The notes under the pieces: generated by a model | Database searches by the model: none | What the model saw: only the letters and a program-made list of their open reading frames with translations | What the model was told of the DNA's origin: nothing | Part shown: positions 22,028 through 44,600 of the stretch, in pieces | Numbering within the stretch: the stretch's first letter is position 1 | Layout: every line of letters begins with the position of its first letter | Virus record (IMG/VR): IMGVR_UViG_2526164628_000012 | From: a virus | Lineage: Duplodnaviria; Heunggongvirae; Uroviricota; Caudoviricetes | Reading direction: 5' to 3' (one strand) | Length of the DNA stretch: 51,169 bases | Translations under genes and position numbers: made by a program

Positions 22028-22035
22028 GTAAAACA

Positions 22036-22273: not shown

Positions 22274-22274
22274 T

Positions 22275-22628: not shown

Positions 22629-23024
22629 ATGATGGAAAAAACAGAAAACAAACCGATTGTAATTGGTGCTGATGCTGCTCCGTTTAAGTTTGAGTTGTCT
22701 CAACTGGTGGAGATGCGTATCAGTGATGAATGGGGTGAGGTTAAAGCCCGCGCGCAGTATGCGGATGGCGAAAACCAGTACTTGATCCACTACAAAGCAG
22801 CTGATGGTCGCGCCACGACGGAGTGGTTTGGTGAGTCAATGCTGGAAGCAACAGAAGATGATCGTCATCCGGGTTGTCCGGTATTTGCCGGTATGAAATT
22901 ACCGGAAGGTGCAGTTGAACTGCAGCCGGGTGAGGTGTTCGTAATGACAGACATCATTGATGGTAAACCGCAGTATTCGCGTATTGAAATGAATAGTAAG
23001 AGTGCTCGCCTGATTCGTGAGTAA
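22629..23024 (+). CDS. Hypothetical protein, 131 aa
   Basis: ATG at 22629 after GGAGA; hairpin terminator follows at about 23030-23070. Confidence 0.45.
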   Translation: MMEKTENKPIVIGADAAPFKFELSQLVEMRISDEWGEVKARAQYADGENQYLIHYKAADGRATTEWFGESMLEATEDDRHPGCPVFAGMKLPEGAVELQPGEVFVMTDIIDGKPQYSRIEMNSKSARLIRE

Positions 23025-23394
23025 CAGGCATTACAGCAGCCCTTCACTCTAAGGGGTTGCTGTAATGTGAGAAATAAAAAACCGGTCACAGGGAGCAGCT
23101 ACACAGAAGCGGCCGGCGAAGACCGCCAATACCACCCATGCATTGATGCAACATACTAATGACAATAGCCGCTATTGATGTAAATGCAATGTTATGCATC
23201 GACGAAAATAAAAAACCGGCAGGGGAAATCCATTGAAGATTTGCCGGTGGCAAAAGAGGGCCATGTTTTTAACCTTAGTCGCAGAGTTACGGAGTGCAAC
23301 TACGAATGCTGCCGGTATATGGCTGAATGGCGTTTCAATGATGTACGTCATCTTATCTGTAAATGTTAATGACAAACGCTCTCATTTGTGCGGG

Positions 23395-23600
23395 TCCTTC
23401 CGGTGGGGTGGCCTGCCACGGGGCGGAAGGCGCGCGGGTTTTCGCTATTTATGAAAATTTTCCGGGGAAAATCATGTCGGTACTTCTCGAACATAACTAT
23501 TTGTTTTTTCTAATATCGAATCCGTAAAAGGTCCGACATGAAAACGCCTAAAAAAGTCATTTTCGGGCACTTTCATGTCGGACCCTGTGTTTGTTGTGAG
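23395..23600 (+). promoter_or_regulatory. cos site (cosN with flanking terminase-binding inverted repeats)
   Basis: ACGGGGCGGAAGGCGCGCGGGTTTTCGCTATTTATGAAAATTTTCCGG resembles lambda cos except for the cohesive-end 12-mer; inverted repeats GTCCGACATGAAA / TTTCATGTCGGAC just upstream of Nu1. Confidence 0.55.
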
Positions 23601-23608
23601 ACTGTTTC

Positions 23609-24128
23609 ATGAAGGTTAATAAAAAGAAACTTGCCGAAATTTTCAACGTGGATCCGCGAACGATTGAACGCTGGCAGTCTCAGGGACTCCCTTGCGTCTC
23701 CGGAGGTGGTAAGGGCGTTGAATCTGTATTTGATACCTCCATGGCAATTCAGTGGTATGCGCAGAGGGAGGCTGATATCGAAAATGAAAAACTCCGTAAA
23801 GAGGTTGAGGATTACAGAGCTGCCAGTGAGGCAGATCTCCAGCCTGGGACTATTGAGTACGAACGCCATCGACTTACGCGTGCGCAGGCCGACGCACAGG
23901 AGCTGAAGAATGCCAGAGACTCCGCAGAAGTGGTGGAAACCGCATTCTGTACTTTCGTGCTGTCACGGATCGCAGGTGAAATTGCCAGTATTCTTGACGG
24001 GATCCCTCTCTCGGTACAGCGGCGTTTTCCGGAACTGGAAAACCGACATGTTGATTTCCTGAAACGGGATATCATCAAAGCCATGAACAAAGCAGCCGCG
24101 CTGGATGAACTGATACCGGGGTTGCTGA

Positions 24129-24154
<26 letters not shown>
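23609..24154 (+). CDS. Nu1: Terminase small subunit Nu1
   Basis: Near-identical to recalled lambda gpNu1. Confidence 0.9.
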
Positions 24155-27835
<3,681 letters not shown>

Positions 27836-27855
<20 letters not shown>

Positions 27856-29155
27856 TCTCCCGCATATTGCCAGTATGGCCTTTAATGAGCCGCTGATGCT
27901 TGAACCCGCCTATGCGCGGGTTTTCTTTTGTGCGCTTGCAGGCCAGCTTGGGATCAGCCGCCTGACGGATGCGGTGTCCGGCGACAGCCTGACTGCCGGA
28001 GAGGCACCCGCGGCGCTGGCGTTATCCGTTGATGATGACGGACCACGACAGGCCCGCAGTTATCAGGTCATGAACGGCATCGCCGTGCTGCCGGTGTCCG
28101 GCACGCTGGTCAGCCGGACGCGGGCGCTGCAGCCGTATTCGGGGATGACCGGTTACAACGGCATTATCGCCCGTCTGCAACAGGCTGCCAGCGATCCGAT
28201 GGTGGACGGCATTCTGCTCGATATGGACACGCCCGGCGGGATGGTGGCGGGGGCATTTGACTGCGCTGACATCATCGCCCGTGTGCGTGACATAAAACCG
28301 GTATGGGCGCTGGCCAACGACATGAACTGCAGTGCAGGTCAGCTGCTTGCCAGTGCCGCCTCCCGGCGTCTGGTCACGCAGACCGCCCGGACAGGCTCCA
28401 TCGGCGTCATGATGGCTCACAGTAATTACGGTGCTGCGCTGGAGAAACAGGGTGTGGAAATCACTCTGATTTACAGCGGCAGCCATAAGGTGGATGGCAA
28501 CCCCTACAGCCATCTTCCGGATGACGTCCGGGAGACACTGCAGTCCCGGATGGACGCAACCCGCCAGATGTTTGCGCAGAAGGTGTCGGCATATACCGGC
28601 CTGTCCGTGCAGGCTGTGCTGGATACCGAGGCTGCAGTGTACAGCGGTCAGGAGGCCATTGATGCCGGACTGGCTGATGAACTTGTTAACAGCACCGATG
28701 CGATCACCGTCATGCGTGATGCACTGGATGCACGTAAATCCCGTCTCTCAGGAGGGCGAATGACCAAAGAGACTCAATCAACAACTGTTTCAGCCACTGC
28801 TTCGCAGGCTGACGTTACTGACGTGGTGCCAGCGACGGAGGGCGAAAACGCCAGCGCGGCGCAGCCGGACGTGAACGCGCAGATCACCGCAGCGGTTGCG
28901 GCAGAAAACAGCCGCATTATGGGGATCCTCAACTGTGAGGAGGCTCACGGACGCGAAGAACAGGCACGCGTGCTGGCAGAAACCCCCGGTATGACCGTGG
29001 AAACGGCCCGCCGCATTCTGGCCGCAGCACCACAGAGTGCACAGGCGCGCAGTGACACTGCGCTGGATCGTCTGATGCAGGGGGCACCGGCACCGCTGGC
29101 TGCAGGTAACCCGGCATCTGATGCCGTTAACGATTTGCTGAACACACCAGTGTAA
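27836..29155 (+). CDS. C: Prohead protease/minor capsid protein C (GTG start)
   Basis: 439 aa from GTG 27836, lambda gpC-like; overlaps B end. Confidence 0.9.
28550..29155 (+). CDS. Nu3: Scaffold protein Nu3 (nested in-frame within C)
   Basis: In-frame ATG at 28550 gives a 606-bp nested ORF ending at the C stop, as in lambda. Confidence 0.7.
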   Translation: MDATRQMFAQKVSAYTGLSVQAVLDTEAAVYSGQEAIDAGLADELVNSTDAITVMRDALDARKSRLSGGRMTKETQSTTVSATASQADVTDVVPATEGENASAAQPDVNAQITAAVAAENSRIMGILNCEEAHGREEQARVLAETPGMTVETARRILAAAPQSAQARSDTALDRLMQGAPAPLAAGNPASDAVNDLLNTPV

Positions 29156-29164
29156 GGGATGTTT

Positions 29165-29497
29165 ATGACGAGCAAAGAAACCTTTACCCATTACCAGCCG
29201 CAGGGCAACAGTGACCCGGCTCATACCGCAACCGCGCCCGGCGGATTGAGTGCGAAAGCGCCTGCAATGACCCCGCTGATGCTGGACACCTCCAGCCGTA
29301 AGCTGGTTGCGTGGGATGGCACCACCGACGGTGCTGCCGTTGGCATTCTTGCGGTTGCTGCTGACCAGACCAGCACCACGCTGACATTCTACAAGTCCGG
29401 CACGTTCCGTTATGAGGATGTGCTCTGGCCGGAGGCTGCCAGCGACGAGACGAAAAAACGGACCGCGTTTGCCGGAACGGCAATCAGCATCGTTTAA
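29165..29497 (+). CDS. D: Head decoration protein D
   Basis: 110 aa, [15 protein letters not shown]..., lambda gpD-like. Confidence 0.9.
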
Positions 29498-29515
29498 CTT
29501 TACCCTTCATCACTA

Positions 29516-29540
29516 AAGGCCGCCTGTGCGGCTTTTTTTA
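29516..29540 (+). terminator. Rho-independent terminator after D
   Basis: GGCCGC CTGT GCGGC followed by T7. Confidence 0.6.
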
Positions 29541-29552
29541 CGGGATTTTTTT

Positions 29553-30578
29553 ATGTCGATGTACACAACCGCCCAGCTGCTGGCGGCAAATGAGCAGAAA
29601 TTTAAGTTTGATCCGCTGTTTCTGCGTCTCTTTTTCCGTGAGAGCTATCCCTTCACCACGGAGAAAGTCTATCTCTCACAAATTCCGGGACTGGTAAACA
29701 TGGCGCTGTACGTTTCGCCGATTGTTTCCGGTGAGGTTATCCGTTCCCGTGGCGGCTCCACCTCTGAATTTACGCCGGGATATGTCAAGCCGAAGCATGA
29801 AGTGAATCCGCAGATGACCCTGCGTCGCCTGCCGGATGAAGATCCGCAGAATCTGGCGGACCCGGCTTACCGCCGCCGTCGCATCATCATGCAGAACATG
29901 CGTGACGAAGAGCTGGCCATTGCTCAGGTCGAAGAGATGCAGGCAGTTTCTGCCGTGCTCAAGGGCAAATACACCATGACCGGTGAAGCCTTCGATCCGG
30001 TTGAGGTGGATATGGGCCGCAGTGCGGCGAACAACATCACGCAGTCCGGCGGCACGGAGTGGAGCAAGCGTGACAAGTCCACGTATGACCCGACCGACGA
30101 TATCGAAGCCTACGCGCTGAACGCCAGCGGCGTGGTGAATATCATCGTGTTTGACCCGAAAGGCTGGGCGCTGTTCCGTTCCTTCAAAGCCGTCAGGGAG
30201 AAGCTGGATACCCGTCGCGGCTCTCATTCCGAACTGGAGACAGCGGTAAAAGACCTGGGCAAAGCGGTGTCTTATAAGGGAATGTATGGCGATGTGGCCA
30301 TCGTCGTGTATTCCGGACAGTACGTGGAAAACGGCGTCAAAAAGAACTTCCTGCCGGACAACACGATGGTGCTGGGTAACACTCATGCACGCGGTCTGCG
30401 CACCTATGGCTGTATTCAGGATGCAGATGCATTGAGTGAGGGTATTAATGCGTCTCCCCGTTATCCGAAAAACTGGAAGACATCCGGCGATCCGGCGCGA
30501 GAGTTCACCATGATTCAGTCAGCACCGCTGATGCTGCTGGCTGATCCTGATGAGTTCGTGTCCGTTCAACTGGCGTAA
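29553..30578 (+). CDS. E: Major capsid protein E
   Basis: 341 aa from ATG 29553, lambda gpE-like. Confidence 0.95.
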   Translation: MSMYTTAQLLAANEQKFKFDPLFLRLFFRESYPFTTEKVYLSQIPGLVNMALYVSPIVSGEVIRSRGGSTSEFTPGYVKPKHEVNPQMTLRRLPDEDPQNLADPAYRRRRIIMQNMRDEELAIAQVEEMQAVSAVLKGKYTMTGEAFDPVEVDMGRSAANNITQSGGTEWSKRDKSTYDPTDDIEAYALNASGVVNIIVFDPKGWALFRSFKAVREKLDTRRGSHSELETAVKDLGKAVSYKGMYGDVAIVVYSGQYVENGVKKNFLPDNTMVLGNTHARGLRTYGCIQDADALSEGINASPRYPKNWKTSGDPAREFTMIQSAPLMLLADPDEFVSVQLA

Positions 30579-30619
30579 TCATGGCCCTTCGGGGCCATTT
30601 TCTCTCTGTGGAGGAGTCC

Positions 30620-31015
30620 ATGACGAAAGATGAACTGATTGCCCGTCTCCGTTCGCTGGGTGAGCAACTGAACCGTGATGTCAGCCTGACGGGGACGAAA
30701 GAAGAACTGGCGCTCCGTGTGGCAGAGCTGGAAGAGGAGCTTGATGACACGGATGACGCAGCCGGTCAGGACACGTCTGTCAGCCCGGAAAATGTGCTGA
30801 CCGTGCATGAAAATGAGGTGGTATCAGCGCAGCCGGATACCGTGACTGATACGGCTGAACTGGTCACGGTCGTGGCACTGGTGACGCTGCATACTGATGC
30901 ACTTCACGCCACGCGGGATGAACCTGTGGCATTTGTGCTGCCGGGAACGGCGTTTCGTGTCTCTGCCGGTATGGCAGCCGAAATGACAGAGCGCGGCCTG
31001 GCCAGAATGCAATAA
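30620..31015 (+). CDS. FI: DNA-packaging protein FI
   Basis: MTKDELIARLRSLGEQL..., lambda gpFI-like. Confidence 0.9.
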   Translation: MTKDELIARLRSLGEQLNRDVSLTGTKEELALRVAELEEELDDTDDAAGQDTSVSPENVLTVHENEVVSAQPDTVTDTAELVTVVALVTLHTDALHATRDEPVAFVLPGTAFRVSAGMAAEMTERGLARMQ

Positions 31016-31026
31016 CGGGAGGCGCT

Positions 31027-31380
31027 GTGGCTGATTTCGATAACCTGTTCGATGCTGCCATTGCCTGCGCCGATGAAACGATACGCGGGTACATGGGAAC
31101 GTCAGCCACCATGACATCCGGTGAGCAGTCCGGTGCTGTGATACGTGGTGTTTTTGATGACCCTGAAAATATCAGCTATGCCGGACAGGGCGTGCGCGTT
31201 GAAGGCTCCAGCCCGTCCCTGTTTGTCCGGACTGATGATGTGCGGCAGCTGCGGCGCGGCGACACGCTGACCATCGGTGAGGAAAACTTCTGGATAGACC
31301 GGATTTCGCCGGATGATGGCGGAAGCTGTCATCTCTGGCTTGGGCGGGGCGTACCGCCTGCCGTTAACCGTCGCCGCTGA
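31027..31380 (+). CDS. FII: Head-tail connector FII
   Basis: 117 aa, lambda gpFII-like. Confidence 0.9.
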   Translation: MADFDNLFDAAIACADETIRGYMGTSATMTSGEQSGAVIRGVFDDPENISYAGQGVRVEGSSPSLFVRTDDVRQLRRGDTLTIGEENFWIDRISPDDGGSCHLWLGRGVPPAVNRRR

Positions 31381-31391
31381 AAGGGGGATGT

Positions 31392-31970
31392 ATGGCCATA
31401 AAAGGTCTTGAGCAGGCCGTTGAAAACCTCAGCCGTATCAGCAGAACGGCGGTGCCCGGTGCCGCCGCAATGGCCATTAACCGCGTTGCTTCATCCGCGA
31501 TATCGCAGTCGGTGTCACAGGTTGCCCGTGAGACAAAGGTACGCCGGAAACTGGTAAAGGAAAGGGCCAGGCTGAAAAGGGCCACGGTCAAAAATCCGCA
31601 GGCCAGAATCAAGGTTAACCGGGGGGATTTGCCCGTAATCAAGCTGGGTAATGCGCGGGTTGTCCTTTCGCGCCGCAGGCGTCGTAAAAAGGGGCAGCGT
31701 TCATCCCTGAAAGGTGGCGGCAGCGTGCTTGTGGTGGGTAACCGTCGTATTCCCGGCGCGTTTATTCAGCAACTGAAAAATGGCCGGTGGCATGTCATGC
31801 AGCGTGTGGCCGGGAAAAACCGTTACCCCATTGATGTGGTGAAAATCCCGATGGCGGTGCCGCTGACCACGGCGTTTAAACAAAATATTGAGCGGATACG
31901 GCGTGAACGTCTTCCGAAAGAGCTGGGCTATGCGCTGCAGCATCAACTGAGGATGGTAATAAAGCGATGA
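31392..31970 (+). CDS. Z: Tail completion protein Z
   Basis: 192 aa, lambda gpZ-like. Confidence 0.9.
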   Translation: MAIKGLEQAVENLSRISRTAVPGAAAMAINRVASSAISQSVSQVARETKVRRKLVKERARLKRATVKNPQARIKVNRGDLPVIKLGNARVVLSRRRRRKKGQRSSLKGGGSVLVVGNRRIPGAFIQQLKNGRWHVMQRVAGKNRYPIDVVKIPMAVPLTTAFKQNIERIRRERLPKELGYALQHQLRMVIKR

Positions 31971-32162
31971 AACATACTGAATTCCGTGCAGCCGTACTGG
32001 ATGCACTGGAGAAGCATGACACCGGGGCGACGTTTTTTGATGGTCGCCCCGCTGTTTTTGATGAGGCGGATTTTCCGGCAGTTGCCGTTTATCTCACCGG
32101 CGCTGAATACACGGGCGAAGAGCTGGACAGCGGTAAGCGGCTCGTCAGAACCGTATTGATAT

Positions 32163-33734
32163 TTACTGAGAGCTCAGATCAACTTTCCAGGGCAACAGAT
32201 CGCGTACCCGGTTTGCCGGCCAGTCCTGGATATGTTCAATGACGTAGCGCAGCCACTTTTCTGGCTCCACATTGTTCAGACGGCATGTGCCGATCAGCGA
32301 GTACAACACCGCCGCATGTTCACCACCGCTGTCGGAACCCGCGAACATCCAGTTTTTCCGGCCTACGGCCACTCCCCGTAAGGCGTTCTCTGCGATGTTG
32401 TTGTCGATTTCCACCCAGCCATTACTGCAGTACACGTTCAGTGCATCCCACTGTTTCAGCAGGTATGCGAACGCTTTTGCCGTATCTGAGTGACGCGACA
32501 GTGTTTTCATCTGTTGCTGTATCCAGTCATACAGTGACTGCATCAGTGGCGCGGCTCGGGTTTTTCTTGCCGCCAGACGCTGTTCTGCTGAACAGCCCCG
32601 GACCTCTGCCTCGATGGCATACAGTTCACCGATACGCTGCAGGGCTTCCGTGGTGATGTCGGTGGGCGCTCTTGCATGCACATCGTGGATTTTTCTCCGG
32701 GCATGAGCCATACACGCGGCTTCCGTTATTCTGCCGGATTCGTATAACGCCCGGTAACCACCGTAAGCATCGGCCTGAAGCACACCGCTGTAACCGGCCA
32801 GGTGATTTTGTGGATGGATACCTTTCCGGTCCGGACTGTACGCGAACCAGACCGCCGGGGGCATCTGTGAACCGGCGTTACGGTCATCACGGACGTAGAC
32901 CCACAGCCGGGCTGTCCGGGTTTTACCGCTGCCCGGCTCCTGGACCGGGACGGGGATATCATCAGCATGGACTTTACCGGGCATCAGCACATACTGGCGC
33001 AGGACGTCATACAGCGGCTCCAGTAGTTCAGCAACGGCACCTGTCCAGCGCCCCAGTGTGGCACGGCTCAGCTCCACACCCTGACGGCGGTATATCTCTG
33101 ACTGGCGGTATAACGGCAGATGGTCTGCATATTTTCCGGTGACGACATGGGCCAGGAGCCCCGCTCCGGCATAACTGCGTGCAATGGGTTTTGAAGGTAC
33201 TGGTGCCTGCACGATATGGTCGCACCGACAACAGGCCAGTTTCGGACGTTGTGTTTCGATAACCTTAAAGGCGCTGCTGATAAGCTCCAGTTGCTCTGAC
33301 ACATCACATCCCAGAGAACTGAGTTCACCACCACAGGCAGGACAGCATTCCTCTTCCGGCCGGATAACCCGGGTTTCACGGGGAAGTGAGGCCGGTAACG
33401 GTTTACGGGCTGAAGACTGGCGCAGGGCGGATGGCAGTACCGGGTCATATTGCTCACCCAGCGTTTCCGCCATTTCTTCCTGAAGTGCGCTGATTCGCTC
33501 CTGTGCTTCCTGTATCTGCCGTTCGGTTTTTGCACGAAGTTTTTCTGAGCTTTTACCGAACTGCATACGTTGCAGTTTCGCAACCAGCGCCTTCAGCCGG
33601 TTGATTTCGGAAGCATAAGCCGCCACCCGCTGTGAGAGCAGGCGGTTGTATTCAGCCATCTGGCGTATGGTGTCCTGTTGCGTCTGCAACAGTGCCCGCA
33701 GGCGGGCGTTCTCATGAGCAAGTGAGGTGTCCAT
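32163..33734 (-). CDS. IS66-family transposase (orf3/TnpC), 523 aa
   Basis: Identical protein to copy 1. Confidence 0.85.
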
Positions 33735-33753
33735 ATCCTCACTTTACAACGGG

Positions 33754-34101
33754 TTATATGCGGATTCCAGCGCGTTCCGTTCGTTTCGGGTGCTTCCAGT
33801 TGATACCTTCAAGAAGCATGGATAACTGAGCCGGAGTAAGGTGCACCTTGCCGTCACGGGTGACTGGCCAGACGAAGCGGCCCCGCTCCAGGCGTTTGGT
33901 GAAGAGGCACAGTCCGTCACTGTCAGCCCACAACACTTTTATCTGGTCACCCCGGCGTCCGCGGAAGATGAACAGGTGTCCGGAGAACGGGTCATCCTTC
34001 AGGACGTTCTGAACTTTTGATGCCAGGCCGTTAAAGCCATTTCGCATATCGGTGATACCTGCAACCAGCCAGATACGCGAACCTGCAGGGAGAGATATCA
34101 T
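33754..34101 (-). CDS. IS66-family Orf2 (TnpB), 115 aa
   Basis: Identical to copy 1. Confidence 0.8.
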   Translation of the reverse strand: MISLPAGSRIWLVAGITDMRNGFNGLASKVQNVLKDDPFSGHLFIFRGRRGDQIKVLWADSDGLCLFTKRLERGRFVWPVTRDGKVHLTPAQLSMLLEGINWKHPKRTERAGIRI

Positions 34102-34778
34102 CAGTGGCTGCTCCCTTTTATTTCGCGGATAAGTGTCTGTAATAACGCCGGCGTCAGTTTACCTTTAAGCCTGAGAGTTCCGGCCGGCAGAACCAGCTCA
34201 CAACACAGACTGTCGGACGGTGTATTTATCTGCTCTGGTTCCTGTGCGGGGGCCGGGATTTTATTATCCGGCTCCGGCGTTAACGTCACGGGAAGCAGTG
34301 CCGGCATATTTTTTCCGGAAGGCAGCAGGCCACCTTTCCGGTATTGATGGCGCCAGTTGAAGAGCAGGTTATCGTTGATTCCGTTTTCCCGGGCGATCTG
34401 CGCCACACAGGCTCCGGGCTGCAGTGACTGCTCCACTAAGGCGATTTTAAACTCATAAGGGAAGTTGGGCCGCCGGGGACGTTTTTTTACCACGGGGGCT
34501 TCGGATATAACGGTGCTTTCAGGACGTACGACTGGTACCGTGGAAAATTGTCCGTAAAGGCAGGCATCAAGTTCCTGCTCCGACATGCCTGCGGGCAAAG
34601 GCCACGAAAGGCCAGCTCTCCGAAAGCGCACGAACATACTACAAACTGTTGATTTTGGTACACCCAGGCGACGCCCGGCCACAACCCGGGGTAAATGTTC
34701 TTCAAAGTGAAGACGTAAAGCTTCAGTGATCCAGGTCCGGTGTTTCATACGATAGTGTCCATTAAAAATGATGGACAT
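34101..34778 (-). CDS. IS66-family Orf1 (TnpA), 225 aa
   Basis: Identical to copy 1. Confidence 0.8.
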   Translation of the reverse strand: MSIIFNGHYRMKHRTWITEALRLHFEEHLPRVVAGRRLGVPKSTVCSMFVRFRRAGLSWPLPAGMSEQELDACLYGQFSTVPVVRPESTVISEAPVVKKRPRRPNFPYEFKIALVEQSLQPGACVAQIARENGINDNLLFNWRHQYRKGGLLPSGKNMPALLPVTLTPEPDNKIPAPAQEPEQINTPSDSLCCELVLPAGTLRLKGKLTPALLQTLIREIKGSSH

Positions 34779-35076
34779 TATTTTTGTAGAGCCGGAGGAA
34801 ACAGACCAGACGGTTTAAATGAGCCGGTTACGGACAGCGATACCTGGCAGGCGGAGCTGCATATCGAAGTTTTCCTGCCTGCTCAGGTGCCGGATTCAGA
34901 GCTGGATGCGTGGATGGAGTCCCGGATTTATCCGGTGATGAGCGATATCCCGGCACTGTCAGATTTGATCACCAGTATGGTGGCCAGCGGCTATGACTAC
35001 CGGCGCGACGATGATGCGGGCCTGTGGAGTTCAGCCGATCTGACTTATGTCATTACCTATGAAATGTGAGGACGCT

Positions 35077-35817
35077 ATGCCTGTACCAAATCCTACAATG
35101 CCGGTGAAAGGTGCCGGGACCACCCTGTGGGTTTATAAGGGGAGCGGTGACCCTTATGCGAATCCGCTTTCAGACGTTGACTGGTCGCGTCTGGCAAAAG
35201 TTAAAGACCTGACGCCCGGCGAACTGACCGCTGAGTCCTATGACGACAGCTATCTCGATGATGAAGATGCAGACTGGACTGCGACCGGGCAGGGGCAGAA
35301 ATCTGCCGGAGATACCAGCTTCACGCTGGCGTGGATGCCCGGAGAGCAGGGGCAGCAGGCGCTGCTGGCGTGGTTTAATGAAGGCGATACCCGTGCCTAT
35401 AAAATCCGCTTCCCGAACGGCACGGTCGATGTGTTCCGTGGCTGGGTCAGCAGTATCGGTAAGGCGGTGACGGCGAAGGAAGTGATCACCCGCACGGTGA
35501 AAGTCACCAATGTGGGACGTCCGTCGATGGCAGAAGATCGCAGCATGGTAACAGCGGCAACCGGCATGACCGTGACGCCTGCCAGCACCTCGGTGGTGAA
35601 AGGGCAGAGCACCACGCTGACCGTGGCCTTCCAGCCGGAGGGCGTAACCGACAAGAGCTTTCGTGCGGTGTCTGCGGATAAAACAAAAGCCACCGTGTCG
35701 GTCAGTGGTATGACCATCACCGTGAACGGCGTTGCTGCAGGCAAGGTCAACATTCCGGTTGTATCCGGTAATGGTGAGTTTGCTGCGGTTGCAGAAATTA
35801 CCGTCACCGCCAGTTAA
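35077..35817 (+). CDS. V: Major tail protein V
   Basis: 246 aa from ATG 35077, lambda gpV-like. Confidence 0.9.
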
Positions 35818-35832
35818 TCCGGAGAGTCAGCG

Positions 35833-36255
35833 ATGTTCCTGAAAACCGAATCATTTGAACATAACGGTGTGACCGTCACGCTTTCTGAACTGTCAGCCCT
35901 GCAGCGCATTGAGCATCTCGCCCTGATGAAACGGCAGGCAGAACAGGCGGAGTCAGACAGCAACCGGAAGTTTACTGTGGAAGACGCCATCAGAACCGGC
36001 GCGTTTCTGGTGGCGATGTCCCTGTGGCATAACCATCCGCAGAAGACGCAGATGCCGTCCATGAATGAAGCCGTTAAACAGATTGAGCAGGAAGTGCTTA
36101 CCACCTGGCCCACGGAGGCAATTTCTCATGCTGAAAACGTGGTGTACCGGCTGTCTGGTATGTATGAGTTTGTGGTGAATGATGCCCCTGAACAGGCAGA
36201 GGACGCCGGGCCTGCAGAGCCTGTTTCTGCGGGAAAGTGTTCGACGGTGAGCTGA
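35833..36255 (+). CDS. G: Tail assembly chaperone G
   Basis: 140 aa, lambda gpG-like; slippery GGGAAAG at 36231-36237. Confidence 0.9.
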   Translation: MFLKTESFEHNGVTVTLSELSALQRIEHLALMKRQAEQAESDSNRKFTVEDAIRTGAFLVAMSLWHNHPQKTQMPSMNEAVKQIEQEVLTTWPTEAISHAENVVYRLSGMYEFVVNDAPEQAEDAGPAEPVSAGKCSTVS

Positions 36256-36671
36256 GTTTTGCCCTGAAACTGGCGCGCGAGATGGGGCGACCCGACTGGC
36301 GTGCCATGCTTGCCGGGATGTCATCCACGGAGTATGCCGACTGGCACCGCTTTTACAGTACCCATTATTTTCATGATGTTCTGCTGGATATGCACTTTTC
36401 CGGGCTGACGTACACCGTGCTCAGCCTGTTTTTCAGCGATCCGGATATGCATCCGCTGGATTTCAGTCTGCTGAACCGGCGCGAGGCTGACGAAGAGCCT
36501 GAAGATGATGTGCTGATGCAGAAAGCGGCAGGGCTTGCCGGAGGCGTTCGTTTTGGCCCGGACGGGAATGAAGTTATCCCCGCTTCCCCGGATGTGGCGG
36601 ACATGACGGAGGATGACGTAATGCTGATGACAGTATCAGAAGGGATCGCAGGAGGAGTCCGGTATGGCTGA
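36237..36671 (+). CDS. T: Tail assembly protein T (expressed as G-T fusion by programmed -1 frameshift)
   Basis: -1 frame ORF downstream of slippery heptamer GGGAAAG, as in lambda. Confidence 0.75.
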   Translation: MFDGELSFALKLAREMGRPDWRAMLAGMSSTEYADWHRFYSTHYFHDVLLDMHFSGLTYTVLSLFFSDPDMHPLDFSLLNRREADEEPEDDVLMQKAAGLAGGVRFGPDGNEVIPASPDVADMTEDDVMLMTVSEGIAGGVRYG

Positions 36672-39225
36672 ACCGGTAGGCGATCTGGTCGTTGATTTAA
36701 GTCTGGATGCGGCCAGATTTGACGAGCAGATGGCCAGAGTCAGGCGTCATTTTTCCGGTACGGAAACTGATGCGAAAAAAACAGCGGCAGTCGTTGAACA
36801 GTCGCTGAGCCGACAGGCGCTGGCTGCACAGAAAGCGGGGATTTCCGTCGGGCAGTATAAAGCCGCCATGCGTATGCTGCCTGCACAGTTCACCGACGTG
36901 GCCACGCAGCTTGCAGGCGGGCAAAGTCCGTGGCTGATCCTGCTGCAACAGGGGGGTCAGGTGAAGGACTCCTTCGGCGGGATGATCCCCATGTTCCGGG
37001 GGCTTGCCGGTGCGATCACCCTGCCGATGGTGGGGGCCACCTCGCTGGCGGTGGCGACCGGTGCGCTGGCGTATGCCTGGTATCAGGGCAACTCAACCCT
37101 GTCCGATTTCAACAAAACGCTGGTCCTTTCCGGCAATCAGGCGGGACTGACGGCAGATCGTATTCTGGCCCTGTCCAGAGCCGGGCAGGCGGCAGGGCTG
37201 ACGTTTAACCAGACCAGCGAGTCACTCAGCGCACTGGTTAAGGCGGGGGTAAGCGGTGAGGCTCAGATTGCGTCCATCAGCCAGAGTGTGGCGCGTTTCT
37301 CCTCTGCATCCGGCGTGGAGGTGGACAAGGTCGCTGAAGCCTTCGGGAAGCTGACCACAGACCCGACGTCGGGGCTGACGGCGATGGCACGCCAGTTCCA
37401 TAACGTGACGGCGGAGCAGATTGCGTATGTTGCTCAGTTGCAGCGTTCCGGCGATGAAGCCGGGGCATTGCAGGCGGCGAACGAGGCCGCAACGAAAGGG
37501 TTTGATGACCAGACCCGCCGCCTGAAAGAGAACATGGGCACGCTGGAGACCTGGGCAGACAGGACAGCACGGGCATTCAAATCCATGTGGGATGCGGTGC
37601 TGGATATTGGTCGTCCTGATACCGCGCAGGAGATGCTGATTAAGGCAGAGGCTGCGTTTAAGAAAGCAGACGACATCTGGAATCTGCGCAAGGATGATTA
37701 TTTTGTTAACGATGAAGCGCGGGCGCGTTACTGGGATGATCGTGAAAAGGCCCGTCTTGCGCTTGAAGCCGCCCGAAAGAAGGCTGAGCAGCAGACTCAA
37801 CAGGACAAAAATGCGCAGCAGCAGAGCGATACCGAAGCGTCACGGCTGAAATATACCGAAGAGGCGCAGAAGGCTTACGAACGGCTGCAGACGCCGCTGG
37901 AGAAATATACCGCCCGTCAGGAAGAACTGAACAAGGCACTGAAAGACGGGAAAATCCTGCAGGCGGATTACAACACGCTGATGGCGGCGGCGAAAAAGGA
38001 TTATGAAGCGACGCTGAAAAAGCCGAAACAGTCCGGCGTGAAGGTGTCTGCGGGCGATCGTCAGGAAGACAGTGCTCATGCTGCCCTGCTGACGCTTCAG
38101 GCAGAACTCCGGACGCTGGAGAAGCATGCCGGAGCAAATGAGAAAATCAGCCAGCAGCGCCGGGATTTGTGGAAGGCAGAAAGTCAGTTCGCGGTACTGG
38201 AGGAGGCGGCACAACGTCGCCAGCTGTCCGCACAGGAGAAATCCCTGCTGGCGCATAAAGATGAGACGCTGGAGTACAAACGCCAGCTGGCTGCACTTGG
38301 CGACAAGGTTACGTATCAGGAGCACCTGAATGCGCTGGCGCAGCAGGCGGATAAGTTCGCACAGCAACAACGGGCAAAACGGGCAGCCATTGAGGCGAAA
38401 AACCGGGGGCTGACTGACCGGCAGGCAGCGCGGGAAGCCACAGAACAGCGCCTGAAGGAACAGTATGGCGATAATTCGCTGGCGCTGAATAACGTCATGT
38501 CAGAGCAGAAAAAGACCTGGGCGGCTGAAGACCAGCTTCGCGGGAGCTGGATGGCAGGCCTCAGGTCCGGCTGGAGTGAGTGGGAAGAGAGCGCCACGGA
38601 CAGTATGTCGCAGGTTAAAAGTGCAGCCACGCAGACCTTTGATGGTATTGCGCAGAATATGGCGGCGATGCTGACCGGCAGTGAACAGAACTGGCGCAGC
38701 TTCACCCGCTCCGTGCTGTCCATGATGACAGAAATTCTGCTTAAGCAGGCAATGGTGGGGATTGTCGGGAGTATCGGCAGCGCCATTGGCGGGGCTGTTG
38801 GTGGCGGCGCATCAGCGTCAGGCGGTACAGCCATTCAGGCAGCTGCGGCGAAATTCCATTTTGCGACCGGAGGATTTACGGGAACCGGCGGCAAATATGA
38901 GCCAGCGGGGATTGTTCACCGTGGTGAATTTGTCTTCACTAAGGAGGCAACCAGCCGGATTGGCGTGGGGAATCTCTACCGGCTGATGCGCGGCTATGCC
39001 ACCGGCGGTTATGTCGGTACACCGGGCAGCATGGCGGACAGCCGCTCGCAGGCGTCCGGGAAGTTTGAGCAGAATAACCATGTGGTGATTAACAACGACG
39101 GCACGAACGGTCAGATAGGGCCACAGGCGCTGAAGGCGGTTTATGACGTAGCCCGTAAGGCGGCAATGGATGTTGTGACCGGGCAGATGCGCGATGGTGG
39201 TCTGTTCTCCGGAGGTGGACGATGA
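36664..39225 (+). CDS. H: Tail tape-measure protein H
   Basis: 853 aa, same length as lambda gpH. Confidence 0.9.
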   Translation: MAEPVGDLVVDLSLDAARFDEQMARVRRHFSGTETDAKKTAAVVEQSLSRQALAAQKAGISVGQYKAAMRMLPAQFTDVATQLAGGQSPWLILLQQGGQVKDSFGGMIPMFRGLAGAITLPMVGATSLAVATGALAYAWYQGNSTLSDFNKTLVLSGNQAGLTADRILALSRAGQAAGLTFNQTSESLSALVKAGVSGEAQIASISQSVARFSSASGVEVDKVAEAFGKLTTDPTSGLTAMARQFHNVTAEQIAYVAQLQRSGDEAGALQAANEAATKGFDDQTRRLKENMGTLETWADRTARAFKSMWDAVLDIGRPDTAQEMLIKAEAAFKKADDIWNLRKDDYFVNDEARARYWDDREKARLALEAARKKAEQQTQQDKNAQQQSDTEASRLKYTEEAQKAYERLQTPLEKYTARQEELNKALKDGKILQADYNTLMAAAKKDYEATLKKPKQSGVKVSAGDRQEDSAHAALLTLQAELRTLEKHAGANEKISQQRRDLWKAESQFAVLEEAAQRRQLSAQEKSLLAHKDETLEYKRQLAALGDKVTYQEHLNALAQQADKFAQQQRAKRAAIEAKNRGLTDRQAAREATEQRLKEQYGDNSLALNNVMSEQKKTWAAEDQLRGSWMAGLRSGWSEWEESATDSMSQVKSAATQTFDGIAQNMAAMLTGSEQNWRSFTRSVLSMMTEILLKQAMVGIVGSIGSAIGGAVGGGASASGGTAIQAAAAKFHFATGGFTGTGGKYEPAGIVHRGEFVFTKEATSRIGVGNLYRLMRGYATGGYVGTPGSMADSRSQASGKFEQNNHVVINNDGTNGQIGPQALKAVYDVARKAAMDVVTGQMRDGGLFSGGGR

Positions 39226-39551
39226 AAACCTTCCGCTGGAAAGTGAAACCCGGTATGGATGTGGCTTCGGCCCCTTCTGTAAGAAAGGTGCGCTTTGGTG
39301 ATGGCTATTCCCAGCGAGCGCCTGCCGGGCTGAATGCCAACCTGAAAACGTACAGCGTGACGCTTTCTGTTCCCCGTTGGGAGGCCACGGTACTGGAGTC
39401 GTTTCTGGAAGAGCACGGGGGCTGGAAAGCCTTTCTGTGGACGCCGCCTTATGAGTGGCGGCAGATAAAGGTGACCTGCGCAAAATGGTCGTCGCGGGTC
39501 AGTATGCTGCGTGTTGAGTTCAGCGCAGAGTTTGAACAGGTGGTGAACTGA
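39222..39551 (+). CDS. M: Minor tail protein M
   Basis: 109 aa. Confidence 0.9.
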   Translation: MKTFRWKVKPGMDVASAPSVRKVRFGDGYSQRAPAGLNANLKTYSVTLSVPRWEATVLESFLEEHGGWKAFLWTPPYEWRQIKVTCAKWSSRVSMLRVEFSAEFEQVVN

Positions 39552-40249
39552 TGCAGGATATCCGGCAGGAAACACTGAATGAATGCACCCGTGCGGAGCA
39601 GTCGGCCAGCGTGGTGCTCTGGGAAATCGACCTGACAGAGGTCGGTGGAGAACGTTATTTTTTCTGTAATGAGCAGAACGAAAAAGGTGAGCCGGTCACC
39701 TGGCAGGGGCGACAGTATCAGCCGTATCCCATTCAGGGGAGTGGTTTTGAACTGAATGGCAAAGGCACCAGTACGCGCCCCACGCTGACGGTTTCTAACC
39801 TGTACGGTATGGTCACCGGGATGGCGGAAGATCTGCAGAGTCTGGTCGGCGGAACGGTGGTCCGGCGTAAGGTTTACGCCCGTTTTCTGGATGCGGTGAA
39901 CTTCGTCAACGGAAACAGTGACGCCGATCCGGAGCAGGAGGTGATCAGCCGCTGGCGCATCGAGCAGTGCAGCGAACTGAGCGCGGTGAGTGCCTCCTTT
40001 GTACTGTCCACGCCGACGGAAACAGATGGCGCTGTTTTTCCGGGACGTATCATGCTGGCCAACACCTGCACCTGGACCTATCGCGGCGATGAGTGCGGTT
40101 ATCACGGTCCGGCGGTCGCGGATGAATATGACCAGCCAACGTCCGATATCACGAAGGATAAATGCAGCAAATGCCTGAGTGGCTGTAAGTTTCGCAATAA
40201 CGTCGGCAACTTTGGCGGCTTCCTTTCCATTAACAAACTTTCGCAGTAA
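39551..40249 (+). CDS. L: Minor tail protein L
   Basis: 232 aa. Confidence 0.9.
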   Translation: MQDIRQETLNECTRAEQSASVVLWEIDLTEVGGERYFFCNEQNEKGEPVTWQGRQYQPYPIQGSGFELNGKGTSTRPTLTVSNLYGMVTGMAEDLQSLVGGTVVRRKVYARFLDAVNFVNGNSDADPEQEVISRWRIEQCSELSAVSASFVLSTPTETDGAVFPGRIMLANTCTWTYRGDECGYHGPAVADEYDQPTSDITKDKCSKCLSGCKFRNNVGNFGGFLSINKLSQ

Positions 40250-40254
40250 ATCCC

Positions 40255-40998
40255 ATGACACAGACAGAATCAGCGATTCTGGCGCACGCCCGGCGATGTG
40301 CGCCAGCGGAGTCGTGCGGCTTCGTGGTGAGAGCGCCGGAGGGGGAAAGCTATTTTCCCTGCGTGAATATCTCCGGTGAGCCGGAGGCGTATTTCCGGAT
40401 GGCTCCGGAGGACTGGCTGCAGGCAGAGATGCAGGGTGAGATTGTGGCGCTGGTCCACAGCCACCCCGGTGGTCTGCCCAGGCTGAGTGAGGCTGACCGG
40501 CGGCTGCAGGTGCAGAGTGATTTGCCGTGGTGGCTGGTCTGCCGGGGGGCGATTCACAAGTTCCGCTGTGTGCCGCATCTCACCGGGCGGCGCTTTGAGC
40601 ACGGGGTGACGGACTGTTACACGCTGTTCCGGGATGCTTATCATCTGGCGGGGATTGAGATGCCGGATTTTCATCGCGGGGATGACTGGTGGCGTAACGG
40701 TCAGAATCTCTATCTTGACAATATGGAGGCGACTGGTTTTTACCGTGTCGCACTGACAGAGGCGCAGCCTGGCGACGTGCTGCTGTGCTGCTTTGGTTCA
40801 TCGGTGCCGAATCATGCCGCCATTTACTGTGGTGACGGCGAGCTGCTGCACCATATTCCTGAACAACTGAGCAAACGAGAGAGGTATACCGACAAATGGC
40901 AGCGACGCACACACTCCCTCTGGCGTCACCGGGCATGGCGCGCATCTGCCTTTACGGGGATTTACAACGATTTGGCCGCCGCATCGACCTTCGTGTGA
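40255..40998 (+). CDS. K: Tail assembly protein K (JAMM/MPN plus NlpC/P60-like)
   Basis: HSHPGG JAMM-type motif; classical lambda-annotated start corresponds to ATG 40399 (199 aa). Confidence 0.85.
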   Translation: MTQTESAILAHARRCAPAESCGFVVRAPEGESYFPCVNISGEPEAYFRMAPEDWLQAEMQGEIVALVHSHPGGLPRLSEADRRLQVQSDLPWWLVCRGAIHKFRCVPHLTGRRFEHGVTDCYTLFRDAYHLAGIEMPDFHRGDDWWRNGQNLYLDNMEATGFYRVALTEAQPGDVLLCCFGSSVPNHAAIYCGDGELLHHIPEQLSKRERYTDKWQRRTHSLWRHRAWRASAFTGIYNDLAAASTFV

Positions 40999-41567
40999 AA
41001 ACGGGGGCTGAAGCCATTCGGGCGCTGGCCACACAGCTCCCGGCGTTTCGTCAGAAACTGAGCGACGGCTGGTATCAGGTACGGATTGCCGGGCAGGATG
41101 TCAGCACGTCCGGATTAACGGCGCAGTTACATGAGACTCTGCCTGATGGCGCTGTGATTCATATTGTTCCCAGAGTCGCCGGGGCCAAGTCAGGTGGCGT
41201 ATTCCAGATTGTCCTGGGGGCTGCCGCCATTGCCGGATCATTCTTTACCGCCGGGGCCACCCTTGCAGCATGGGGGGCAGCCATTGGGGCCGGTGGTATG
41301 ACCGGCATCCTGTTTTCTCTCGGTGCCAGTATGGTGCTCGGTGGTGTGGCGCAGATGCTGGCACCGAAAGCCAGAACTCCCCGTACACAGACAACGGATA
41401 ACGGCAAACAGAACACCTATTTCTCCTCACTGGATAACATGGTTGCCCAGGGCAATGTTCTGCCGGTTCTGTACGGTGAAATGCGCGTGGGGTCGCGGGT
41501 GGTCTCTCAGGAGATCAGCACGGCAGACGAAGGGGATGGTGGTCAGGTTGTGGTGATTGGTCGCTGA
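40896..41567 (+). CDS. I: Tail assembly protein I
   Basis: 223 aa, overlaps K 3' end as in lambda. Confidence 0.9.
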   Translation: MAATHTLPLASPGMARICLYGDLQRFGRRIDLRVKTGAEAIRALATQLPAFRQKLSDGWYQVRIAGQDVSTSGLTAQLHETLPDGAVIHIVPRVAGAKSGGVFQIVLGAAAIAGSFFTAGATLAAWGAAIGAGGMTGILFSLGASMVLGGVAQMLAPKARTPRTQTTDNGKQNTYFSSLDNMVAQGNVLPVLYGEMRVGSRVVSQEISTADEGDGGQVVVIGR

Positions 41568-41626
41568 TGAAAAACGTTTATGTGAAACCGCCTCCGGGCG
41601 GTTTTGTCGTTTATGGAGCGTGAGGA

Positions 41627-44600
41627 ATGGGTAAAGGCAGCAGTAAGGGGCATACCCCGCGCGAAGCGAAGGACAACCTGAAATCCACGCAGTTGCTGAG
41701 TGTGATTGATGCCATCAGTGAAGGGCCGATTGAAGGTCCGGTGGATGGATTAAAAAGCGTGCTGCTGAACAGTACGCCGGTGCTGGACACTGAGGGGAAT
41801 ACCAACATCTCCGGTGTCACGGTGGTGTTCCGGGCAGGTGAGCAGGAGCAGATTCCGCCGGAGGGATTTGAATCCTCCGGCTCCGAGACGGTGCTGGGTA
41901 CGGAAGTGAAATATGACACGCCGATCACCCGGACCATCACGTCTGCAAATATCGACCGTCTGCGCTTTACCTTCGGTGTGCAGGCACTGGTGGAAACCAC
42001 CTCAAAGGGGGACAGGAATCCGTCGGAAGTCCGCCTGCTGGTTCAGATACAACGTAACGGTGGCTGGGTGACAGAAAAAGACATCACCATTAAGGGCAAA
42101 ACCACGTCGCAGTATCTGGCCTCAGTGGTGGTGGATAACCTGCCGCCGCGCCCGTTTAATATCCGGATGCGCAGGATGACGCCGGACAGCACCACAGACC
42201 AGCTGCAGAACAAAACGCTCTGGTCGTCATACACCGAAATTATCGATGTGAAACAGTGCTACCCGAACACGGCACTGGTCGGCGTGCAGGTGGACTCGGA
42301 GCAGTTCGGCAGCCAGCAGGTGAGCCGTAATTATCATCTGCGCGGGCGTATTCTGCAGGTGCCGTCGAATTATAACCCGCAGACGCGGCAATACAGCGGT
42401 ATCTGGGACGGAACGTTTAAACCGGCATACAGCAACAACATGGCCTGGTGTCTGTGGGATATGCTGACCCACCCGCGCTACGGCATGGGGAAACGTCTTG
42501 GTGCGGCAGATGTGGATAAATGGGCGCTGTATGTTATCGGCCACTACTGCGACCAGTCGGTGCCGGACGGCTTTGGCAGCACGGAGCCGCGCATCACCTG
42601 TAATGCCTGGCTGACCACACAGCGCAAGGCGTGGGATGTGCTCAGTGATTTCTGCTCGGCGATGCGCTGTATGCCGGTATGGAACGGGCAGACGCTGACG
42701 TTCGTGCAGGACCGACCATCAGATAAGGTGTGGACCTATAACCGCAGTAATGTGGTGATGCCGGATGATGGCGCGCCGTTCCGCTACAGCTTCAGCGCCC
42801 TGAAGGACCGCCATAATGCCGTTGAGGTGAACTGGATTGACCCGAACAACGGCTGGGAGACGGCGACAGAGCTTGTTGAAGATACGCAGGCCATTGCCCG
42901 TTACGGTCGTAACGTCACGAAGATGGATGCCTTTGGCTGTACCAGCCGGGGGCAGGCGCACCGCGCCGGGCTGTGGCTGATTAAAACGGAACTGCTGGAA
43001 ACGCAGACCGTGGACTTCAGCGTGGGTGCGGAAGGGCTTCGCCATGTACCGGGGGATGTCATTGAAATCTGCGATGATGACTATGCGGGTATCAGCATCG
43101 GCGGGCGCGTGCTGGCGGTGAACAGCCAAACCCGGACGCTGACGCTCGACCGTGAAATCACGCTGCCATCCTCCGGTACCACGCTGATAAGCCTGGTTGA
43201 CGGTCAGGGTAATCCGGTCAGCGTGGAGGTCCAGTCCGTCACCGACGGCGTGAAGGTGAAAGTGAGCCGGGTTCCTGACGGCGTTGCAGAATACAGCGTG
43301 TGGGGGCTGAAGCTGCCGACGCTGCGCCAGCGCCTGTTCCGCTGTGTGAGTATCCGTGAGAACGACGACGGCACGTATGCCATCACTGCCGTGCAGCATG
43401 TACCGGAGAAAGAAGCCATCGTGGATAACGGGGCGCACTTTGACGGCGACCAGAGCGGCACGGTGAATGGTGTCACGCCGCCAGCGGTGCAGCACCTGAC
43501 CGCCGAAGTCACCGCAGACAGCGGGGAATATCGGGTGCTGGCGCGCTGGGACACGCCGAAGGTGGTGAAGGGCGTGAGCTTCCTGCTCCGTCTGACCGTA
43601 ACAGCGGATGACGGCAGTGAGCGGCTGGTCAGCACGGCCCGGACGACGGAAACCACATACCGCTTCACGCAACTGGCGCTGGGGCGGTACACGCTGACAG
43701 TCCGGGCGGTAAATGCGTGGGGACAGCAGGGCGATCCGGCGTCGGTATCGTTCCGGATTGCCGCACCGGTAGCACCGTCGCGGATTGAGCTGACGCCGGG
43801 CTATTTTCAGATAACCGCCACGCCGCATCTTGCGGTTTATGATCCGACGGTACAGTTTGAGTTCTGGTTCTCGGAAAAGCGGATTACCGATATCAGGCAG
43901 GTTGAAACCAGCGCGCGTTATCTTGGTACGGGGCTGTACTGGATAGCTGCCAGTATCAATATCAAACCGGGCCATAATTATTATTTTTACGTTCGCAGTG
44001 TGAACACCGTTGGCAAATCGGCATTCGTGGAGGCTGTTGGTCAGCCGAGTGATGACGCATCCGGCTATCTGGATTTTTTCAAAGGCGAGATAGGGAAAAC
44101 CCATCTGGCTCAGGAGCTGTGGACGCAGATTGATAACGGTCAGCTTGCGCCTGACCTGGCTGAAATCAGGACATCCATTACGGATGTCAGCAATGAAATC
44201 ACGCAGACTGTCAATAAGAAACTGGAAGACCAGAGTGCAGCGATCCAGCAGATACAGAAGGTTCAGGTTGATACAAATAATAATCTGAACAGCATGTGGG
44301 CTGTGAAGCTGCAGCAGATGCAGGACGGACGCCTTTATATTGCGGGTATCGGTGCCGGTATTGAGAACACCCCCGACGGCATGCAGAGTCAGGTGCTGCT
44401 GGCGGCAGACAGGATTGCGATGATTAATCCTGCAAATGGCAACACAAAACCGATGTTTGTTGGTCAGGGTGATCAGATATTCATGAACGACGTGTTCCTG
44501 AAACGCCTGACGGCCCCCACCATTACCAGCGGCGGTAATCCTCCGGCATTTTCCCTGACACCGGACGGGCGGCTGACGGCGAAAAATGCCGATATCAGCG

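Follow-up and report, generated by a model that had tools for sequence, protein, structure and literature searches.

The DNA analysed here, referred to below as the window, is a stretch of 51,169 nucleotides from the virus record IMGVR_UViG_2526164628_000012, and it carries a lambda-like prophage whose tail genes, as assigned using Pfam and the annotation of E. coli H10407, follow the order Z-U-V-G-T-H-M-L-K-I-J. The tail gene Z (31392-31970, + strand; 192 aa) is intact, matches the Pfam profile Minor_tail_Z over its full length (E = 5e-82) and overlaps with the start of the tail terminator gene U at 31967 in the motif ATGA. The 5' fragment of U (31967-32132, + strand) comprises codons 1-55 and one further nucleotide, and its translation is identical to residues 1-55 of the lambda gpU except for L6F. 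This fragment ends with the octamer GGACAGCG (32125-32132; nt 159-166 of U), a second, perfect copy of which lies at 34832-34839 and is followed by the 3' fragment of U (34840-35069, + strand), which extends from the remainder of codon 56 to the stop codon and encodes residues 56-131. The intact gene V of the major tail tube (35077-35817, + strand; Pfam Phage_TTP_12, 3e-70, and Big_2) begins with an ATG at 35077, 8 nt 3' of the U stop codon. The sequence between the two octamers (32133-34831) is an insertion sequence of 2699 bp, and the probability that an exact 8-mer repeat would abut both of its ends by chance is approximately 1.5e-5 (4^-8). The open reading frame of the 5' fragment runs into this element and yields a product of 91 aa (31967-32242). 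These base-exact observations confirm that U is split by an ISCro1-type element with an 8-bp target site duplication (TSD), and the first-pass annotation was correct in describing a 2699-bp element of the IS66 family that was flanked by an intact 8-bp duplication and cut U after codon 55 or, more exactly, after codon 55 plus one base (nt 166).

The assignment of the element, hereafter copy B (- strand), to the IS66 family was based on both its ends and its genes. Its imperfect terminal inverted repeats, GTAAGCGGCTC... and GTAACCGGCTC... (32133-32158 and 34806-34831), have the GTAAGCG-like start and match at 17 of the first 26 bases and at 10 of the first 11, and they are accompanied by the 8-bp TSD. 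Three intact genes are encoded on the - strand, and all three match Pfam profiles. The DDE transposase gene tnpC (32163-33734; 523 aa) contains the Pfam domains DDE_Tnp_IS66, zf-IS66, LZ_Tnp_IS66 and IS66_C, aligns with 283 of the 284 positions of PF03050 (DDE_Tnp_IS66; E = 8e-104), and its product differs from WP_000381395.1 by 3 aa. The IS66 Orf2 accessory protein TnpB (33754-34101; 115 aa; PF05717 TnpB_IS66, 5e-40) is identical to WP_000624622.1, and the helix-turn-helix accessory protein TnpA (34101-34778; 225 aa; PF01527 HTH_Tnp_1, 9e-15) is identical to WP_001339397.1. At 34101, the stop codon of tnpA overlaps with the start of tnpB, and tnpC follows 19 nt further. Copy B shares 99.4% nucleotide identity with RefSeq copies that were labelled "IS66-like element ISCro1 family" by PGAP, these labelled copies and not the ISfinder entry being the reference for the name. 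ISCro1 is an IS66-family element that takes its name from Citrobacter rodentium and is widespread in E. coli. In its length of 2699 bp, the order tnpA-tnpB-tnpC and the 8-bp TSD, copy B shows no structural difference from the known element, and only its insertion site is new.

U is not an uninterrupted, expressible gene of the gpU family in the window; it is split by 2707 bp and is therefore a pseudogene. The in-silico excision of 32133-34839, i.e., the element and one copy of the TSD, followed by translation, restored an open reading frame of 396 nt that encodes 131 aa. This protein matched the Pfam profile Phage_tail_U (PF06141) over its full length (1-130 of 130; E = 2e-61) and was identical to the lambda gpU of PDB 1Z1Z at 130 of 131 residues (E = 1e-84), which bears out the earlier expectation that such an excision would give a full gpU-like protein; we take the entries 1Z1Z, 3FZ2 and 3FZB to represent the phage lambda gpU tail terminator. 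The DNA of the Z-U-V region is 99.5% identical to that of phage lambda, in which the same site is empty (J02459, 7985-9678) and the flanks of the insertion abut with an 8-bp overlap; in the window, the gene is interrupted.

An empty site was also found in a much closer relative. The ETEC strain TW10590 (NZ_CP035850.1) carries a near-isogenic prophage at ompW with approximately 11 mismatches over approximately 48 kb, and its U gene is intact, with flanks that overlap by exactly the 8-bp TSD. The insertion in U is recent and lineage-specific because this near-isogenic prophage has the empty site. An assembly artefact, in which a mis-join placed a repeated element into a U gene that is in reality intact, has to be weighed here, as ISCro1 is a multi-copy element that occurs twice in the window and at a median of several places in each genome, and the exact junction between the element and U was found in none of the 5,426 complete E. 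coli genomes, in which apparent full-coverage matches consisted of two pieces with the element located elsewhere. An exact search with the left-junction 39-mer gave 0 matches in the GTDB species representatives, among which the source strain is therefore not included. Both absences are also counted in favour of the account of the insertion given below. However, a mis-join would not yield a perfect target duplication at both ends together with a seamless restoration of the reading frame. Moreover, the two copies in the window differ by one nucleotide and each has its own TSD, and perfect 8-bp TSDs flank not only these two but also about 20 further copies that were mapped in finished genomes. 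We consider such an artefact to be very unlikely. Even less credible is a reversible switch, in which precise excision of the element would restore U upon induction. Although recombination between the 8-bp repeats could restore the frame, the prophage of TW10590 simply lacks the element, and other genomes carry it at many positions, some of which leave U intact, which indicates random decay rather than a conserved switch. We also know of no precise excision at useful rates in the IS66 family. A true transposition of ISCro1 into U is the reading that is followed below.

The prophage has been damaged at other places as well, and together with the insertion in U it has taken at least three hits by insertion sequences. 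The second ISCro1 copy, copy A (5768-8466, - strand), is flanked by the TSD GAACAAAA (5760-5767 and 8467-8474) and is located in the leftward early region, in the intergenic space between a repressor-like gene and a DUF1391 gene. It has the same orientation as copy B, from which it is distinguished by a single synonymous nucleotide (T/G at IS position 426). Copy A is shared with TW10590, where it occupies the same site with an identical sequence. Additionally, an IS3-family element of 1310 bp (18078-19387, + strand; orfA 18132-18458, orfB 18455-19345; flanked by GTGC) splits a phage N6/N4 DNA methyltransferase gene (17491-18126 and 19432-19854) that is uninterrupted in TW10590. The DicA-like repressor gene (8698-9116, - strand) has lost one nucleotide of a homopolymer and is thereby broken; the run is T6 at 8968-8973 on the + strand compared to A7 in relatives, whose version of the gene encodes 139 aa. 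The TW10590 prophage thus differs from that in the window in having U, the methylase and the repressor-like gene all intact, and further in carrying ISEc62 (IS21 family) in a replication HTH gene, an element that the window prophage lacks. The prophage is approximately 51.6 kb long including 6.7 kb of insertion sequences; the window ends approximately 0.3-0.4 kb before the ompW fragment and does not include attR. The earlier suggestion that the prophage is likely cryptic is strengthened by copy A, the IS3 insertion in the methylase gene, the repressor frameshift and this length. We propose that the prophage be annotated as defective, with a U pseudogene and three lesions besides. The data allow the strain to be placed beside ETEC TW10590, and the insertions may serve as fine-scale lineage markers.

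Direct observation establishes how the insertion is built, that its removal restores the gene, that the site is empty in a near-isogenic relative, and in what order the events took place. The course that we propose is that a resident ISCro1, acting through its DDE transposase TnpC and the accessory proteins TnpA and TnpB, would have transposed into the U gene of a lambda-like prophage at ompW in an ETEC-like E. coli, and that a staggered cut at the target and its repair would have duplicated GGACAGCG. Copy B may itself be competent for transposition, as is hinted by its intact open reading frames and by its being new relative to TW10590. The donor is presumed to have been copy A, at a distance of 26 kb; this is not provable because further identical ISCro1 copies may sit elsewhere in the genome. 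The predicted products of the split gene are a 55-residue N-terminal stub of gpU that continues into 36 residues encoded by the element, and a C-terminal fragment that would have neither a promoter nor a start. gpU terminates the tail tube as a hexamer, which closes the tube and offers the surface to which the head is joined (PMC11784142, PMC3224144). Neither fragment would be expected to form this hexameric ring, which closes the V tube and connects it with the head, and therefore the prophage alone would make no finished tails or infectious particles. That tail termination has been lost is inferred from the established biology of lambda, and there is good support for the conclusion that the prophage, when acting alone, would be defective. 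The insertion in U would then represent one step in the ongoing, IS-driven decay of a prophage that was already compromised. Taken as a whole, this account, from the transposition of ISCro1 into U of the ompW prophage to the disabling of tail completion and continuing decay, is very probably correct. In itself, the event is an ordinary one and leaves the picture of phage and transposon biology unchanged.

The first-pass annotation went further and stated that the lesion in U alone should stop the production of infectious particles. For a prophage acting alone, this agrees with the biology of the lambda gpU, but it need not hold where a helper prophage is present, as lambdoid prophages that share a cell are able to compensate for one another's defects in morphogenesis (PMC2669165). 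In O157 Sakai, Asadulghani et al. (2009) found that defective lambdoid prophages were released as particles and transferred via such inter-prophage complementation (PMC2669165). Those prophages are likewise lambda-like, with insertion sequences, frameshifts and deletions in essential genes; they differ in the types of elements, the genes and the strains, and their activity was measured, whereas the window prophage is known from its sequence alone. In the window, late transcription that is antiterminated by Q might read through the element so that V to J are still expressed, and gpU could come in trans from a second lambdoid prophage. Because of this read-through and a possible helper U, it is not certain that the cell as a whole would lack infectious particles. 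The lesion could be masked in this way, with the element still being packaged and transferred, and it would fit such masking that lambda-type U genes were found at least once in 3,539 of the 5,426 E. coli genomes, at up to seven places per genome, and that the remaining late genes of the window prophage look intact, the lengths of Z, V, G, T, H, M, L, K, I, J, lom, stf, tfa and the head and terminase genes being as in lambda and H10407. However, a helper would lie in the rest of the genome, outside the window, and the frameshifted repressor and the copy beside the repressor-like and DUF1391 genes suggest a wider decay. Moreover, the upper limit of lambda cos packaging is approximately 105% of 48.5 kb, and a prophage of approximately 51.6 kb lies at or above it. 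Functional masking appears improbable on balance, if clearly less so than an artefact or a switch.

As a kind of lesion, the interruption of gpU by ISCro1 is already known from RefSeq pseudogenes, for example, in ETEC H10407. There, a lambda-like prophage adjacent to prfC (NC_017633, ETEC_RS25705/RS31090) carries the same element in the same orientation and the same gene, annotated in RefSeq as a split "phage tail terminator protein", and its late region is 97% identical to that of the window prophage. The insertion is nevertheless independent, with the TSD CGATATCC at nt 270-277 of U as opposed to GGACAGCG at nt 159-166, and the early region and the chromosomal site of the two prophages also differ. 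When an independent event was defined by a distinct TSD or orientation, the 5,426 complete E. coli genomes revealed no fewer than 16 independent ISCro1 insertions within approximately 870 bp around U (-353 to +514 relative to its start), 11 of which fall into a 180-bp stretch at the U/V junction. With the same queries, the 5.4 kb of flanks yielded at most approximately 13 events, some flank matches being unmapped. An apparently uniform orientation near U proved to be an artefact that arose because pieces were joined on a single strand; a reverse-complemented IS query found 32 more genomes, and the insertions are therefore not biased in orientation.

The IS66 family is generally considered to show no marked target specificity, and within the library searched, nothing relevant was found on the target choice of ISCro1 or IS66. 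The clustering at the U/V junction suggests a target preference that has not been described. Whether the choice of U in the window reflects a regional or site preference of ISCro1 for Z-U-V of lambda-type late operons, and was hence not random, we regard as evenly balanced. The excess of events near U over the flanks argues for it, as do three target octamers that were used in both orientations, where approximately 0.04 such coincidences would be expected by chance. On the other side, the site in the window lies outside the densest core, selection instead of targeting could produce the clustering, and none of the 22 ISCro1 ends from IMG/VR viral contigs was in U, these ends being scattered and drawn from a sample with few lambda-like contigs. 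Two possible causes of targeting were also considered: no sequence resembling the inverted repeats matched above background in the hot region, and the low GC content of the hot 100-bp bin (50% compared to a background of 57%) explains the clustering only in part, since nearby bins that are equally AT-rich were not hit. A stronger version, which we put forward tentatively and hold to be somewhat less probable, is that ISCro1 has a strong preference for the short segment that runs from the 3' end of U across the U/V junction into the 5' end of V, with more hot octamers at the 3' end of Z and the 5' end of E, and so repeatedly and independently disables lambdoid tail modules across E. coli. In that case, the TnpA/B/C machinery would recognise a structural or protein-bound feature of the preferred DNA. 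Targeting of this type would offer a small but concrete handle on the poorly understood target choice of IS66 elements and would bear on the contribution of insertion sequences to prophage domestication. The target consensus, which also speaks for a preference, is weak, consisting of C at -2, G at TSD position 1 and A/T at TSD positions 3 and 6.

The U reading frame, the lambda-type tail terminator gene, starts at 31967 on the plus strand, where its ATG overlaps the Z stop codon, and foreign DNA has entered it one base past codon 55, behind nt 166, so that residues 1-55 of the product are parted from residues 56-131. The octamer GGACAGCG is present in two copies, at 32125-32132 and 34832-34839, and the 2699 bp between them start with GTAAGCGGCTC and terminate in a near-complement of it, the terminal inverted repeats (IRs) being imperfect, with 10 matches in the outer 11 bases and 17 in the outer 26. 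The chance of a perfect 8-mer repeat abutting both ends is about 1 in 65,000 (4^-8). In-silico removal of 32133-34839 gave a 396-nt ORF, whose 131-aa product covered the entire Pfam Phage_tail_U profile (E = 2e-61) and was identical to lambda gpU (PDB 1Z1Z, 3FZ2, 3FZB) at 130 of 131 residues. Phage lambda itself (J02459, 7985-9678) represents the empty site, with Z-U-V flanks that are 99.5% identical and abut with an 8-bp overlap. The first-pass annotation had described the break after codon 55, the 2699-bp element with its 8-bp direct repeat and the restoration of gpU by excision, and all of these were confirmed; its IS66-family assignment was borne out by the minus-strand genes tnpA (34101-34778; HTH_Tnp_1), tnpB (33754-34101; IS66 Orf2) and tnpC (32163-33734; DDE_Tnp_IS66 together with zinc-finger, leucine-zipper and C-terminal IS66 domains), which are all intact. 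TnpA is identical to WP_001339397.1 and TnpB to WP_000624622.1, and TnpC differs from WP_000381395.1 by three residues. Based on these matches and on the 99.4% identity to RefSeq copies labelled "IS66-like element ISCro1 family", the element would be an ordinary and apparently functional copy of ISCro1. The sequence thus shows the insertion into U of an IS66-family element whose transposition genes are intact, with an 8-bp target-site duplication (TSD).

A second ISCro1 copy, copy A, lies at 5768-8466 in the same orientation, with the TSD GAACAAAA at 5760-5767 and 8467-8474, between a repressor-like gene and a DUF1391 gene. The copy in U differs from it only at IS position 426, where it has G in place of T, a synonymous change. 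The same prophage is found at ompW in the ETEC strain TW10590 (NZ_CP035850.1, ~4.100-4.150 Mb), which matches window positions 1-10007 with no mismatches and one gap, and 10641-18077, 19382-32132 and 34832-51169 at 99.96-99.99% identity (overall, ~11 mismatches in ~48 kb). Its U is intact, the window flanks overlapping there by exactly the 8-bp TSD, and it carries an ISCro1 at the copy A site that is identical in sequence to copy A. Since copy A is common to both prophages and U is intact in TW10590, the comparison indicates that the ancestral ompW prophage had copy A and that the U insertion came later in the window lineage; copy A is thus the earlier of the two and could plausibly have been the donor of the copy in U. 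Homologous recombination between these direct copies, which are 26 kb apart, could delete the intervening 23.7 kb.

Further lesions were found in the window. A 1310-bp IS3-family element (18078-19387; IRs TGAACCGCCCCGGG..., flanked by GTGC) splits a phage N6/N4 DNA methyltransferase gene into fragments at 17491-18126 and 19432-19854; the gene is uninterrupted in the TW10590 prophage, and the element has 100% identical copies, both plasmid-borne and chromosomal, in ETEC (strains 300709 and TW10590). The DicA-like repressor gene (8698-9116, minus strand) is reduced to two overlapping ORFs through a 1-nt homopolymer deletion, with T6 at 8968-8973 (A6 on the coding strand) as against A7 in relatives, whose repressor is intact (WP_000362153.1, 139 aa). 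Either the immunity repressor is truly inactivated by this deletion or the deletion is a sequencing error in the homopolymer. From the alignments, the methylase-gene insertion and, if real, the repressor deletion were likewise gained in the window lineage, and TW10590 gained instead an ISEc62 (IS21 family) in the replication HTH gene. These sister prophages are decaying through different IS hits.

Lambda without functional U produces aberrant tails that do not join to heads, as was established by classical genetics. IS DNA amounts to ~6.7 kb of the prophage, whose length is probably ~51.6 kb because the window stops ~0.3-0.4 kb short of attR, as marked in TW10590 by an ompW fragment; this equals or exceeds the upper packaging limit of lambda. 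The prototype tail terminator, gpU, forms a hexameric ring that ends polymerisation of the V tube and gives the head-attachment surface (PMC11784142, PMC3224144). Infectious particles would therefore be beyond the prophage acting alone. It had been proposed that the U lesion stops particle production and that the prophage is likely cryptic; for the prophage alone this is supported and the additional lesions strengthen the case for a defective phage, but co-resident lambdoid prophages can complement defective ones (PMC2669165), and 3,539 of the 5,426 E. coli genomes searched have lambda-type U genes. For this reason, the prophage is very likely cryptic as to autonomous growth, and its mobilisation via a helper prophage is possible.

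IS-disrupted prophage genes are commonplace, and the lesion in the window is of an already known kind and nothing new in itself. In the reference ETEC strain H10407 (NC_017633), RefSeq already annotates gpU as split by ISCro1, as in the window, but that event is independent: its TSD, CGATATCC, spans U nt 270-277, and the prophage is another one, adjoining prfC. The exact U junction of the window was absent from the 5,426 complete E. coli genomes and the GTDB representatives. In E. coli NZ_OZ547043.1 (3114559-3115695), gpU is split by an IS200C element, and hence ISCro1 is not the sole IS found in U. The prophage of strain GXU-23-25-310 (NZ_CM171611.1), which is of the same type, carries an ISCro1 at the U/V junction together with an IS621 (IS110 family) that splits the major capsid gene.

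The Z-U / IS / U-V configuration was searched with the IS as found and reverse-complemented, since the search joins pieces on one strand only, and ISCro1 lay within ~2.7 kb of Z-U-V in 21 and 32 genomes, respectively. Exact mapping of the loci of 24 of these genomes placed the IS in Z-U-V in 20, and all had perfect 8-bp TSDs. Counted from the U start, and with + or - for the same or the opposite orientation as the window copy, the TSDs began upstream at -353(-), -26(+) and -26(-), in the window at 159(+), and elsewhere at 270(+), 334(+), 339(+), 355(-), 377(-), 389(+) (at least three genomes; U left intact), 397(-), 410(+), 410(-), 457(-), 478(-) and 507(-). This amounts to at least 16 independent events in ~870 bp around U, 11 of which fall within 180 bp at the U/V junction, where ~0.7 would be expected (~29 events over 7.1 kb); the flanks (5.4 kb, same searches) held at most ~13. 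The window insertion is at the margin of this cluster, outside its core. In other E. coli genomes, sites were located at window-equivalent positions 29606, 31030-31038, 31613, 31940, 34943-35180 and 37284. Clustering of this kind may reflect either targeting or selection. Three octamers, at window-equivalent 29606 (5' end of E), 31940 (Z) and 35083 (V), were used in both orientations (~0.04 expected by chance), and the target consensus is weak (C at -2, G at TSD position 1, A/T at TSD positions 3 and 6). No IR-like sequence that could serve as a targeting cue was found in the hot region, its AT-richness is only modestly above that of its surroundings, and 22 ISCro1 ends in IMG/VR contigs, a small unbiased sample, were scattered with none in U. 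The literature searched gave no account of target choice by ISCro1 or IS66. The cluster is a modestly interesting lead.

The window, a lambda-like prophage, opens with the stop codon of a lambda-type integrase gene, followed in order by exonuclease VIII-like, dicB/DUF1482/DUF1391 and DicA-like repressor genes, ydaS/ydaT-like and replication genes, DUF968, RusA, a Q-like DUF1133 protein, the DNA methylase, three tRNA genes, holins, endolysin and a complete lambda-type module (Nu1-A-W-B-C-D-E-FI-FII-Z-U-V-G-T-H-M-L-K-I-J-lom-stf-tfa). The phage-borne tRNA genes (19904-20153) lie downstream of the interrupted methylase gene, an arrangement shared with many lambdoid and Stx-type prophages, and comprise Arg-TCG, Arg-TCT and one with a CAT anticodon, which is Met according to ARAGORN and Ile according to PGAP in relatives. 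At the right end, a class I SAM-dependent methyltransferase gene (49890-50558, minus strand), antisense to the tail-fibre genes, precedes a partial second copy of the tail fibre assembly gene (50590-50870), and this region (49890-50870) looks like cargo or a remnant.
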